Assembly: GCA_963848295.1 (NCBI GenBank)
Contig: CAWKDB010000002.1
Span: forward strand, 960,001-1,024,000
DNA length: 64,000 nt
From: an uncultured delta proteobacterium
Lineage (GTDB): Bacteria; Myxococcota_A; Polyangia; Haliangiales; Haliangiaceae
Reading direction: 5' to 3'
Of this stretch, positions 43,483-64,000 are shown piece after piece. How positions within the stretch are numbered: the first letter of the stretch is position 1; each line of letters begins with the position of its first letter. Position numbers and translations under genes: made by a program. Under the pieces are notes generated by a model that worked only from the letters and a program-made list of their open reading frames with translations, was not told the origin of the DNA and ran no database searches.

Positions 43483-44835
43483 GTGACCGCAGGTCCCCGG
43501 GTGCTCGTAGTCGACGACGAGCGCAATATCCGCACGACGTTGACGATGTGCCTCGAAGGCATCGGCGCGAAAGTCATCGCGGTGGGCACGCCCGAGGCCG
43601 CCCTCGCCGCCGCCGAGCGCGAGCCATTCGAGCTCGCCTTCGTGGATCTCCGGCTCGGTGCCCAAGACGGCATGGCGCTGATCCCGAAGCTGCTCGCGTC
43701 TCGCCCGGAGCTCGCCATCGTCGTGATCACGGCCTACGCGACGATCGACACCGCGGTCGAGACGATCAAGCGCGGCGCGACCGAGTTCCTCGCGAAGCCG
43801 TTCACCCCGGCGCAGATTCGCCACGTCGTCGCGCAGGTCCTCGCGCGCCGGACCGCGGAGCTCAAGATCGCGGGACTCGAAGCGCAGATCGCCGAGGAGT
43901 TGCCCGGGATCGACGTCGCGACCGAGTCGCCGAAGATGCGCGCGACACTCGAGCTGGCGACCCGAGCGGCGGCCGCGGACGCGCCGATGTTGCTGCGCGG
44001 CGAGAGCGGCACCGGCAAGAGCGTGCTGGCGCGCTTGGTCCATGCTCGCAGCAAGCGCGCCGCGCAACCGTTCGTCACCGTGAGTTGTCCGACGCTGTCC
44101 GAGGACCTGCTCGCGAGCGAGCTGTTCGGCCACGCAGTCGGTGCGTTCACCGGGGCCGTTCGCGATCAACCGGGCCGGGTCGAGGCCGCCGACGGCGGCA
44201 CGCTGTTCCTCGACGAGATCGGCGACATCTCGCTTGCCTTGCAGGCGAAGCTGCTGCGGTTTCTCCAGGACAAGCACTTCGAGCGGGTCGGCGAGACCAA
44301 GACGCGGCACGTCGACGTTCGCGTCATCGCGGCGACCAATCGCGATCTCGACGCCGATGTCGCGGCCGGCCGATTCCGCGAAGACCTGCTGTTCCGCCTC
44401 AACGTCATCGAGATCGCGGTGCCCGCGCTGCGCGAGCGCTCCGAAGATATCGTCGAGATGGCGCGCCGATTTCTCGCGTTCTTCGCGAAGGCCGCGGCGC
44501 GGCCCGTGCCCGAGCTTTCGCCCGCGGCCGCCGCTGCGCTGCGCGCGTACGCGTGGCCCGGCAACGTGCGCGAGCTGCGGAACGTTCTCGAGCGCGCGGT
44601 GATCCTCTATCCTTCGGCCACGCTCGGTGTCGAGGCGCTGCCCGATCGGATCGAGGCCTCGGCGAGCACCCCTCCGAGGGTCGGTGCCGACTTCACGCTA
44701 GATCAGCTGGAGCGCGAGCACATCGAGCGCGTCGTCGCGCGCGCGTCGACGCTGGAGGATGCTGCTGCGATCCTCGGCATCGATGTCTCGACGCTCTATC
44801 GCAAGCGCAAGAAGTACGGTCACGACTCGGAGTGA
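43483..44835 (+). CDS. Sigma54-dependent response regulator (AlgB-like)
   Basis: Receiver; [32 protein letters not shown]. Confidence 0.93.
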
Positions 44836-46667
44836 GCCGCGTCCGCGAGCGGAACGGTGAACCAGAACGTCGCACCCGCTCCCGGCTCGCCGGTGACGCC
44901 GATCGCACCGCCGTGCGCGCGCACGATCTCGCTCGCGATGTAGAGCCCGAGGCCCGCGCCGCCGGCGGGGGCGCCCGGCACGCGCACGTACTTGTCGAAG
45001 ATCGCGTCTCGGTACTCCGCCGGCACCCCGGGGCCATGGTCGACGACCTCGAAGCGCAGCGCGTGGTCCGCTACGCGGGCGCGGACCGCGACCTCGCCAC
45101 CAGCTGGCCCGTAGCGGACGGCGTTGCCGACGAGGTTCGCGAGCACGAGCAGCAGGCGATCGCGGTCGACTGCGATCGCCGGCAGGCCTGGCATCAGCTC
45201 GGAGCGCAGCTCGACCTGGCGCTGCGCTGCGGTCGAGCGCTGTGCATCGAGCGCCTCGCGCACGACCACCTCCGGGTCCTCGGGCGCGATGCGCAGCTCG
45301 ATCCGGTCAGCCGAGATCCGCGACAGATCGAGCAACTCGTCGACGATCGCCTGTAGTCGATCGCACTCCTCGCGTGCCGCGAACACCAGGTCGGCCTGTT
45401 TCTCGGTGAGCTCGCCGACGGCCTTCTCGGCGAGCAGGTGCACCGCCATCCGGAGCGATGTCAGCGGCGTGCGCAACTCGTGGGCGACGGTCGCGACCAG
45501 ATCGCTGCGCAGCTCCTCGAACCGGCGCAGGCGAGTCACGTCCTGGAGCACGATCGTCGCACCGATCACGTCGCCCTCCTCGGCGTAGAGCGGCGCCGCG
45601 CGTGGCAGCAACAACACGCGGGTCCCGTCGGCCCCGACGACCTCGACCGCCTCGTCCAGTCCCTTCGGGACGTACGCGCCGTGCCCGGCGGCGACGTATT
45701 GGCGCAGCCGCTCGACCGCGCTGCGCACCGCCGGTTCCAGCGACGCGAGCGCGCCGCGCCCTGCCTCGGCGCGCACCTTGAGGATGGTCTCCGCGATGTG
45801 GTTCGCGTGGCGCAGCTCGCCATCGAGCGCGACCACGAGCACCGGATCGGGGAGGCTGTCGATCGCGGCCTGCGCGGCGAGCTGGGCCTCGAGCAGCTCG
45901 CCGAGCGAGCTCTCGCGATACTTGTGGATGCGTTCGGCCATCGTGTTGAGCTCGTGGGCGAGCTCACCGATCTCGTCGCCGCGCTCGACCCGCGCGCGAA
46001 CCGCGACATCGCCCTCGCCGAGCCGGCGCGCGGTCTGGCCAAGCACGCTGAGCGGCCGGAGGACGCGCGTCGTGATCACCGACGACAGCAACACGCCGAG
46101 CGCGAGGCCGGCGATCGACACGGCGACGAGCAGCATGTTCGACTCGTCGGCGAGGTCGCGCGCGTGGTCGCTCTTGCGGATCATCGCGTCCTGATTCATC
46201 CCGAGGATTACGTCGGCCGCGTTCTTGACCGCGAGAAAATCCGGAAGCAGTTTCGTGAAGTAGCGGTCGTCAAGCCCGACCGCCTCGGGGCTCGCCCGGA
46301 CCGCTCCGACATCGCTGCGATAGGTCGTCCAGGCGAGGTGCAGCGCGGCGGTCGCACCGCGCTCGCCGGCCTCGGTGATGTTCGCTTCCTGGGCCGCGAG
46401 CTCGGCTTCGAACTTGGGCACGTTCGCATCGACCTGGTCGAGGCCACGGCCTGCTCGCCCGATGATCGCGAACACGACACCACTGTCGATCCGCTCCGCC
46501 GCCTCCTTCATGCGCTCCGCGGCAAGCACCGAGCGATAGTTGTCCTCGAGGATGTGCCGCGATCCACGACCGAGCGCCTGGATCACTACGCTGCCGATCA
46601 CGATCGTGATGCCGAGCGCGAGCACGAGCGGCAACTGCGCGAGCACGAGCTTCGTGCGGAGCCTCAT
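44820..46667 (-). CDS. Sensor histidine kinase (four-helix periplasmic domain, HAMP, PAS; KinB-like)
   Basis: ENYRSV...NITE periplasmic helices; HAMP; IDSLPDPV (PAS); VAHELRTPLTS, NLVGNA, GAGLGL. Confidence 0.92.
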   Translation of the reverse strand: MRLRTKLVLAQLPLVLALGITIVIGSVVIQALGRGSRHILEDNYRSVLAAERMKEAAERIDSGVVFAIIGRAGRGLDQVDANVPKFEAELAAQEANITEAGERGATAALHLAWTTYRSDVGAVRASPEAVGLDDRYFTKLLPDFLAVKNAADVILGMNQDAMIRKSDHARDLADESNMLLVAVSIAGLALGVLLSSVITTRVLRPLSVLGQTARRLGEGDVAVRARVERGDEIGELAHELNTMAERIHKYRESSLGELLEAQLAAQAAIDSLPDPVLVVALDGELRHANHIAETILKVRAEAGRGALASLEPAVRSAVERLRQYVAAGHGAYVPKGLDEAVEVVGADGTRVLLLPRAAPLYAEEGDVIGATIVLQDVTRLRRFEELRSDLVATVAHELRTPLTSLRMAVHLLAEKAVGELTEKQADLVFAAREECDRLQAIVDELLDLSRISADRIELRIAPEDPEVVVREALDAQRSTAAQRQVELRSELMPGLPAIAVDRDRLLLVLANLVGNAVRYGPAGGEVAVRARVADHALRFEVVDHGPGVPAEYRDAIFDKYVRVPGAPAGGAGLGLYIASEIVRAHGGAIGVTGEPGAGATFWFTVPLADAAHSES

Positions 46668-63408: not shown

Positions 63409-64000
63409 CCGCGCTCGGCGAGTGCGTGCTGGTCGTCGAGGACGAAGCGCCGATGCGCAGGTTCCTGTGTCAGGCGCTGGTCAGCCACGGCTATCGCGTC
63501 GCCGAGGCCGGCTCGCTCGCGCGCGCTCACGAGGTCGCGACCGAGACCCGGCCTGCGGCGATCCTGCTCGACCTCGGCCTGCCCGACGGCGACGGGCTCG
63601 ATCTGCTGCGCACCGTGCGCGAATGGTCGACCGCGCCGGTGATCGTGCTGTCGGCGCGCGATCGCGAAGGCGACAAGGTCACCGCGCTCGACGCCGGCGC
63701 CGACGACTATCTGACCAAGCCGTTCGGCACCAGCGAGCTCCTCGCGCGCATCCGCGTCGCGCTGCGTCGAGTCCGCGGCCAAAACAAGCCCGATGACCCC
63801 ACGATCGAGATCGGCCCGATCCGGATCGATCACGCGCGCTACGAAGTATTCGTCGACGCCAAGCCGATTCACCTCACGCCGATCGAGTTTCGCCTGCTCG
63901 CGCTGCTCGCCCGCCACGCCGGCAAGGTGCTGACCCATCGCCAGCTGTTGCAGGCGGTGTGGGGCCCGCGCAGCACGCAGCACACCCACTACCTCCGCGT
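63405..64000 (+). CDS. kdpE: OmpR-family response regulator KdpE (partial)
   Basis: VLVVEDE, LDLGLPDGDG, VIVLSAR, ALDAGADDYLTKPF, HLTPIEF, GKVLTHRQLL...VWGP...HYLR; GTGA overlap with the kinase. Confidence 0.93.
   Translation, partial: MTALGECVLVVEDEAPMRRFLCQALVSHGYRVAEAGSLARAHEVATETRPAAILLDLGLPDGDGLDLLRTVREWSTAPVIVLSARDREGDKVTALDAGADDYLTKPFGTSELLARIRVALRRVRGQNKPDDPTIEIGPIRIDHARYEVFVDAKPIHLTPIEFRLLALLARHAGKVLTHRQLLQAVWGPRSTQHTHYLR

Follow-up and report, generated by a model that had tools for sequence, protein, structure and literature searches.

Two potassium-uptake modules and a stand-alone KdpD/Usp protein at a myxococcal kdp locus

Which partner does a KdpD sensor serve when it is encoded apart from a histidine kinase of its own type? 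The question is raised by a 64,000-nucleotide (nt) stretch of DNA from an uncultured member of the Myxococcota, called the window below, in which the genes discussed are located at positions 43483-64000 (Table 1). A stand-alone protein with a KdpD and a Usp domain (KdpD/Usp) is encoded in the run of the kdpFABC potassium pump, and the end of its gene shares an ATGA overlap with the start of a HAMP-PAS histidine kinase gene. The 3' end of the kinase gene overlaps that of a convergent sigma54 activator gene by 16 base pairs (bp). A KdpD-type membrane kinase (DUF4118, HisKA and HATPase), coupled to an OmpR-type KdpE, was found 14.2 kilobases (kb) from KdpD/Usp on the opposite strand. An initial annotation, made from the letters alone, proposed that KdpD/Usp and the membrane kinase are the halves of one split sensor and that the soluble half feeds both a sigma54 branch and a KdpE branch. 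The genes and motifs that it named were all found where it had placed them. Our comparison with relatives on balance favors a different arrangement, in which two potassium-uptake modules would be wired separately and KdpD/Usp would work with the first module only.

The sigma54 cassette and its promoter

The genus sample contained 91 genomes, 55 with a KdpD domain and 36 without. KdpD/Usp of the clade to which the window's stand-alone protein belongs was found in 22 of the 91. The N-terminal 380 residues of the HAMP-PAS kinase were matched in exactly those 22 genomes, directly behind KdpD/Usp, and in none of the other 69, and kdpC was present in all 22. Linkage of the kinase/activator pair to kdp in relatives, a check that the initial annotation had proposed, was observed in 22/22 genomes. 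The overlap of the KdpD/Usp and kinase reading frames is kept in 28 of 30 Myxococcota loci, and each of the 18 Myxococcota activators checked retains GAFTGA or GSFTGA. In five of the 22 cassette genomes kdpFABC is located apart; KdpD/Usp is still ahead of the kinase in all five, and the pump operon lying apart retains the sigma54 motif in each. The genus genomes are kin and metagenome-assembled, so that the counts overstate independence and the absences are soft, which weakens the case built on them. Fisher tests were run on the genus counts and were not relied on because the genomes are kin. Judged by gene content and order, the sigma54 cassette is one unit. The nearest relatives of its kinase, 65-97% identical, are in Kofleriaceae (Myxococcota).

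A cassette without the pump was suspected from six locus maps and was rejected when kdpA was found elsewhere in four of the five genomes checked. In one genome (G040, 91% complete; locus L054), the cassette faces a KimA-like gene and no kdpA was found. Two genomes, G359 (L158, L182, L181) and G360 (L160, L183, L184), have two activator copies, of which one is next to the pump and the other next to the kinase, and also hold a full-length KdpD/KdpE without pump genes beside it.

The initial annotation had assigned a GG-N10-GC promoter to kdpFABC. The element is present, but it is located 1.6 kb above kdpF, ahead of the porin gene that heads the operon. Promoters were scanned at 24 heads of kdp operons in cassette loci (17 of the 22 genus genomes, the retrieved DNA of the other five having no operon head, and 7 outside); as controls, 16 were chosen from the kdp loci found that have no cassette. 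The sigma54 pattern was observed in 22/24 cassette operons versus 2/16 controls, with a chance expectation of about 0.13-0.18 per region. The rule was set after eight promoters had been viewed, and the pattern was present in 14 of the 16 cassette loci not used for setting it. An ATG is 3-9 nt from the predicted start in 17/22, whether a porin or a small open reading frame (ORF) comes first. Upstream, the window and many relatives carry paired TGCA-N3-TGCA-like palindromes, if in degenerate form. These motifs make it very probable that the kinase/activator pair controls kdp through sigma54, as had been suggested.

We propose that at low K+ the HAMP-PAS kinase would phosphorylate the activator on D55. 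The activator would bind the palindromes (55994-56036) and open the sigma54 promoter (55928-55944), giving a near-leaderless mRNA, and the pair would drive the operon of porin, kdpFABC, kimA1, kdpD/Usp and kinase. Through the ATGA overlap, KdpD/Usp and the kinase would be produced in a 1:1 ratio. A TATGAT hexamer ends 6 nt ahead of the GTG of the activator gene (window 43470-43485), and this gene likely has its own leaderless transcript. Near-leaderless starts look common, at the kdp promoters (window 55913-55944) as well as at the activator GTG.

Outside the phylum, 63 of 251 Bacteroidota genomes gave a match, and 20 short-KdpD loci were picked from these; another 20 came from an Acidobacteriota sample. 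All 20 Bacteroidota loci contained kdpA, an activator and a kinase, with a match to the N-terminal part of the HAMP-PAS kinase in 19, and KdpE was found in 0/20. Among the Acidobacteriota loci, the activator together with this kinase was found in 3/20 and KdpE in 13/20. In three of the Acidobacteriota loci (L294, L296 and L298), KdpD/Usp follows a shorter PAS kinase and kdp genes are absent within 20 kb.

The sigma54 motif might not be a working promoter, in which case kdp would be transcribed by read-through or under KdpE and the pair would have another target. The predicted leader is very short, no clear terminator follows porin1 (a scan for sigma70 promoters and terminators gave nothing useful), and one genome (G350) has a KdpE-type box ahead of a kimA1-porin-porin-kdp run. 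Two other regulators bind the kdp promoter of Desulfovibrio vulgaris (PMC3333781; here and below, papers are cited from the accessible part of their text). Two further points count against the control proposed above: a leader of 3-9 nt has no space for a ribosome site, and the strict sigma54 pattern was found in only 3 of the 15 Bacteroidota loci with the activator directly ahead of kdp. However, the position of the motif is constant and rearrangements leave it with the pump, the GAFTGA or GSFTGA motif is kept in every Myxococcota activator checked, and in D. vulgaris binding of the activator to its own kdp promoter was observed (PMC3333781). We therefore consider a non-working promoter very improbable.

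The KdpE module and the origin of the two KdpD-like parts

The KdpE-type repeat at 59644-59661 has no second perfect copy in the genome of 7.8 Mb. Repeats of this type were found ahead of kimA2 in 15/15 genus loci, ahead of stand-alone kinase genes in 14/25 and ahead of kup in 7/15. Such boxes face kdp in 0/24 cassette loci, compared with 10/16 others, and in the outside genomes without DUF4118 a box was ahead of kimA2 in 0/3. The KdpE protein scored 237 bits with NF007820, under the cut-off of 325, the scored protein being partial. From the motif positions, KdpE-type control of kimA2 appears quite probable, in agreement with the initial annotation. Its broader statement, that the pump is under sigma54 and the secondary transporter under KdpE, applies to kimA2 and does not extend to the other importers: kimA1 is inside the sigma54 run, and neither motif was found ahead of kup in the window. 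In parallel with the first module, the four-helix membrane kinase would sense K+ in its membrane domain and phosphorylate KdpE, which would act at the 11-bp repeats and drive kimA2 and its own module. A 69-amino-acid (aa) two-helix membrane ORF (61788-61997), which is ahead of bare kdpD-C in 11 of 20 loci examined, is a candidate accessory subunit of the bare KdpD kinase.

The KdpD-type kinase is present in 20 of the 36 genus genomes without any KdpD domain, and 9 of the 20 are at least 90% complete. None of these 20 has kdpC, and one has kdpA on a cut contig. When five genomes bearing the kinase without a KdpD domain were rechecked, Pfam KdpD was over its cut-off in none. The KdpD-type kinase is absent from 3/22 genus cassette genomes, and no DUF4118 protein was found in four of the five cassette genomes checked outside the family.

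Among 91 KdpD domains placed in a quick tree, the window copy falls in a clade of 56 rows (Shimodaira-Hasegawa-like approximate likelihood ratio test, SH-aLRT, 92), which is kinase-coupled, spans three phyla and stands apart from the full-length KdpDs of the genus. Four kinase-adjacent rows fall outside this clade. The window KdpD domain is only 38-52% identical to the full-length and Usp-bearing KdpDs of the genus. In a FastTree phylogeny of 96 kinase cores, the membrane kinase of the window nests among the full-length, Usp-bearing and bare forms of the genus. With separate placements in the trees, KdpD/Usp and the membrane kinase do not represent two halves of a single gene. The coordinates of what had been called a clean transmembrane and kinase half hold, but its GAF domain is mostly deleted. 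As read from gene content and trees, the two KdpD-like parts differ in origin, and the KdpE kinase behaves as a separate module. The claim that they form one sensor was not borne out, as each part is found in genomes without the other and the trees do not give them a shared descent. Loci L069-L072, L077 and L197 encode proteins of the order Usp-transmembrane-GAF-kinase that lack KdpD only and are followed by KdpE; they are intermediate between full-length and bare forms.

Module independence in other genomes does not forbid cross-talk where both modules are present. In the model of the initial annotation, one KdpD/Usp modulates both kinases and coordinates pump and symporter. The host genome has only one KdpD domain, and a KdpD-N with a separate C-half kinase is also the layout in Deinococcus (PMC5716572). 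The KdpD-type kinase is held by 19/22 cassette genomes, compared with the 20/36 without a KdpD domain. Both regulatory blocks are within 20 kb in 12/22 cassette genomes, and in G287, G373 and G370 they are still neighbors after the pump moved. Two of the 20 picked Acidobacteriota loci have one KdpD/Usp and both kinase types: L291 (8341-14377) contains kdpC, the HAMP kinase, KdpD/Usp, a DUF4118-GAF kinase and KdpE in one run, and in L284 (11327-15278) both kinases surround one kdp operon. These layouts and associations weigh against separate wiring. On the other hand, each module occurs without the other in the genomes counted above, the two KdpD-like parts are placed in different parts of their trees, and little is left of the GAF domain in the membrane kinase. 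In L291 and L284, KdpD/Usp itself belongs to a clade other than the window's. All the parts found here are known, and we consider a shared-sensor circuit unlikely and less likely than separate circuits. A 254-aa receiver protein that lacks a sigma54 domain comes after the HAMP kinase in L284.

KdpD/Usp and the HAMP-PAS kinase

The KdpD domain has been described as a serine kinase that shuts off KdpB at S162, stand-alone KdpD/Usp as a serine kinase for KdpB, and split KdpD as common (PMC11018627), a report that the initial annotation overlooked. KdpD/Usp of the window keeps G27..G33-K34-T35, D106-E107 and R187, at an offset of -3 from the E. coli numbers (PMC11018627), and has Tyr at the W39 position. 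The TGES of KdpB is present in the window and is kept in 66 of 67 KdpB pieces, the one exception being truncated where its contig ends. In the Usp domain, the motif follows the E. coli RxxxR-X8-WxxVY pattern and not the S. aureus cyclic di-AMP motif (PMC4686210). A conserved Ser pair was found at 260-261 in Usp, and the host genome has both rpoN and a diadenylate cyclase. The conserved residues point with good confidence to KdpD/Usp as a putative KdpB serine kinase. When K+ is plentiful, it would halt the pump by phosphorylating the serine in the TGES of KdpB, an activity demonstrated for the KdpD of E. coli and of Deinococcus.

KdpD/Usp probably also binds the HAMP kinase as a cytoplasmic partner. 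A complex fold was run for KdpD/Usp with the HAMP-PAS-DHp dimer only, DHp being the dimerization and histidine phosphotransfer part. The score was 0.40, with a best control of 0.00. In the benchmark, 116/157 solved pairs and 2/215 mismatched pairs reached this mark; scores at the mark but not above 0.60 were found in only 18/157 solved pairs, yet in both mismatches. The runs agree in at least 73% of contacts, and the predicted local distance difference test (pLDDT) of the partner was at least 67. Of the checks proposed in the initial annotation, the neighborhood survey ties the cassette to kdp loci, and this fold offers weak support for a contact. Four fusions were found among the best 120 longer matches. 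One (P0121), with KdpD-Usp joined to the HAMP kinase family, looks clean. Two facts tell against reading the fusions as evidence of contact: P0121 is a single sequence, and P0035, P0139 and P0146 were rejected as proof of pairing because of junk linkers typical of frameshifts. Taken together, the model and the gene arrangement make a contact of KdpD/Usp with the HAMP kinase somewhat probable. KdpD-Usp chains fused to EIIA of the phosphotransferase system (PTS) were also observed, in loci with the HAMP kinase and the sigma54 activator (L262:6537-8219 and L286:10933-12561). The PTS EIIA fusion was confirmed by Pfam in two and judged from length in six more (L263, L265-L267, L290 and L293).

The outer four-helix domain of the HAMP-PAS kinase was modeled with a pLDDT of 86, and its residues N43, N96, T98, E102 and N158 are invariant in 45/45 sequences. 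With this conserved outer domain of its own, the kinase may sense K+ unaided. Pseudomonas KinB has the order four-helix-HAMP-PAS-kinase and an NtrC-type partner, AlgB, and automatic annotation labels many relatives of the window kinase 'KinB'. The label KinB-like in the initial annotation fits the domain order and not the sensor: Pfam KinB_sensor matched 0/45 family members at E 0.01 and did not match the isolated outer domain at E 10, whereas 4HB_MCP_1 matched 15/45. The setting here is also potassium uptake, not alginate. A structure search with the whole kinase returned generic kinase cores only and did not place the outer domain.

It is conceivable that KdpD/Usp only shuts off KdpB, that the HAMP kinase needs no partner to sense K+ through its outer domain, and that the gene overlap is there for co-expression only. 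The short KdpD has been read as a post-translational regulator only (Silberberg et al., PMC11018627), the outer-domain residues are invariant from Myxococcota to Bacteroidota, and in 8 of the 40 picked Bacteroidota and Acidobacteriota loci the kinase is ahead of kdpA, away from KdpD/Usp. Yet KdpD/Usp stayed with the kinase in 5/5 pump-separated genomes, while in other split systems KdpD stays behind the pump (PMC11018627). The KdpD domains paired with this kinase form the single three-phylum clade of the quick tree, one fusion exists, and the fold points weakly in the same direction. We regard a pump-only KdpD/Usp as a lesser but serious possibility, and prefer separate modules in which KdpD/Usp acts on both KdpB and the HAMP kinase. 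A KdpD/Usp that works as a three-way hub, phosphorylating KdpB, docking on the HAMP-PAS kinase and thereby gating the sigma54 transcription of pump genes and, where a membrane KdpD kinase exists (as here and, within one operon, in L291), tuning KdpE output to KimA, is doubtful. If the hub were true, the N-I-T-E-x-G-E loop of the HAMP kinase would be a new outer K+ site from Myxococcota to Bacteroidota.

Layout of the locus and known systems

Table 1. Genes and sequence elements of the kdp locus, with positions in the window.
Feature	Position	Strand	Remarks
Sigma54 activator (REC-AAA-helix-turn-helix)	43483..44835	+	450 aa; D55; GAFTGA at 220
HAMP-PAS histidine kinase	44820..46667	-	615 aa; transmembrane (TM), outer four-helix bundle, TM, HAMP, PAS, HisKA (H396), HATPase
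Stand-alone KdpD+Usp	46664..47842	-	392 aa; Walker A G33-K34-T35, Walker B D106-E107, R187
KimA-like K+/H+ symporter 1 (kimA1; start approximated by inference)	47862..49724	-	6S3K match, E 1.7e-111
kdpC	49792..50451	-	
kdpB (start approximate; frameshifted in assembly)	50451..52510	-	TGES with S162-equivalent
kdpA (end approximate; frameshifted in assembly)	52511..54236	-	
kdpF	54236..54325	-	
27-aa hydrophobic ORF ahead of kdpF	54328..54411	-	no Pfam match; most relatives have one too
Outer-membrane porin-like gene 2 (porin2)	54416..55913	-	heads kdp operon; frameshifted
Sigma54 -24/-12 element (GG-N10-GC)	55928..55944	-	predicted start ~55917, 4 nt ahead of porin ATG
Two TGCA-N3-TGCA-type palindromes	55994-56006, 56026-56036		candidate activator sites; shape resembles D. 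vulgaris motif
BBP2 porin-like gene 1 (porin1)	56093..57496	-	
kup K+ transporter	57632..59596	+	upstream: neither sigma54 nor KdpE-type motif found
KdpE-type direct repeat, period 11	59644..59661	+	perfect; ahead of kimA2
KimA-like K+/H+ symporter 2 (kimA2)	59693..61720	+	6S3K match, E 6.5e-58
Second KdpE-type repeat (12/14 positions)	61716..61734	+	ahead of small ORF and kdpD-C/kdpE
69-aa two-helix membrane ORF	61788..61997	+	Arg-rich tail; no Pfam match
KdpD-type membrane kinase (kdpD-C)	62020..63408	+	462 aa; DUF4118, mostly deleted GAF, HisKA, HATPase; no KdpD/Usp
kdpE-like OmpR-family regulator	63405..64000	+	231 aa, ends beyond window

The minus-strand run consists of porin2, the 27-aa ORF, kdpF, kdpA, kdpB, kdpC, kimA1, kdpD/Usp and the HAMP-PAS kinase gene, and the plus strand past porin1 carries kup, kimA2, the 69-aa ORF, the KdpD-type membrane kinase gene and kdpE. 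The sole structure match of each KimA copy is B. subtilis KimA (6S3K), with full-length likeness. The genes porin2, kdpA and kdpB carry frameshifts in this assembly. Compared with a 90%-identical relative, 14 of the 16 frame-breaking gaps are extra bases in the window, and the 2.5 kb of kinase and kdpD sequence compared contain no such gap. A short-read contig, which covers the breaks in part and otherwise agrees with the window letter for letter, lacks three of the porin2 breaks. The frameshifts were therefore treated as assembly errors, and a pseudogene reading of kdpA, kdpB and porin2 was rejected. No plasmid match was found. The two porin-like genes (window 54416-57496) flank the kdp promoter and have a candidate role in outer-membrane K+ entry; a porin is inside the kdp operon in many Bacteroidota loci. 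The 27-aa ORF (54328-54411) may be comparable to kdpZ/kdpY of Clostridium.

Both the split KdpD and the sigma54 branch have published precedents (PMC11018627, PMC3333781). The initial annotation knew of no characterized circuit of this kind, but a DVU3334-3336 cassette on kdpFABC has been mapped in D. vulgaris Hildenborough: its sigma54 regulator, DVU3334, binds the kdpFABC operon to which it belongs, and this operon also encodes DVU3336 (KdpD+Usp) and the separate kinase DVU3335 (PMC3333781). The genes DVU3334-DVU3339.1 resemble the locus described here in kdpFABC, KdpD+Usp, a separate kinase and an activator with REC, AAA and DNA-binding domains of 449 aa versus 450 here, a likeness that rests on domain content and motifs and was drawn from the published description. 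In D. vulgaris, activator binding comes from DNA-affinity-purified chip (DAP-chip) data, a sigma54 promoter was predicted at -44, and a TACA-N3-TGTA palindrome is given as the motif, where the window has TGCA-N3-TGCA. The activator is inside the operon there and was called limited to three species, whereas the window has a convergent activator, an operon that includes a porin and a KimA, and an adjoining KdpE module, and the cassette extends across Myxococcota, Bacteroidota and Acidobacteriota.

The short KdpD serine kinase of PMC11018627 is alike in having KdpD and Usp on one soluble chain, the Walker A and B motifs, the arginine, TGES and the cyclase. The window's version differs in its coupling to a kinase that is not a KdpD, in having Tyr for W39 and in its E. 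coli-type Usp motif. Bacteroidota and Myxococcota were named among the groups with mainly short KdpD (PMC11018627). The split KdpD of Deinococcus radiodurans and cyanobacteria (PMC5716572) has KdpD-N behind the pump and the C-half kinase and regulator in a separate, opposite operon, as in the window. However, the Deinococcus regulator binds the kdp promoter (PMC5716572), whereas the KdpE box here faces kimA2 and never kdp in the cassette loci, and in relatives the C-half module is found with neither KdpD-N nor the pump. The second module shares with E. coli KdpD/KdpE a DUF4118-HisKA-HATPase kinase, an OmpR-type KdpE and a direct-repeat box; it differs in that the kinase has no KdpD/Usp, its GAF is mostly deleted and the predicted target is KimA/Kup and not kdpFABC. 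A literature search that left subscription journals mostly uncovered gave no report of a shared KdpD/Usp, of the cassette outside sulfate reducers, or of KdpE driving KimA or Kup. The wiring seen here is also absent from what the accessible parts of PMC3162934 and of a Caulobacter preprint describe.

For species without KdpE, kdp transcription has been called 'constitutive or another unknown mechanism' (PMC11018627). Where the accessible text of that work leaves kdpFABC transcription open in species with a short KdpD and no KdpE, this locus offers a concrete answer in the form of a sigma54 kinase/activator pair. Such a pair had so far been mapped only by DNA binding in one Desulfovibrio (PMC3333781), and a predicted promoter, candidate sites and invariant residues can now be named for it. 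The KdpE module joins KdpE to a shortened KdpD that would be aimed at the KimA and Kup importers, an arrangement of which the literature search above gave no report.

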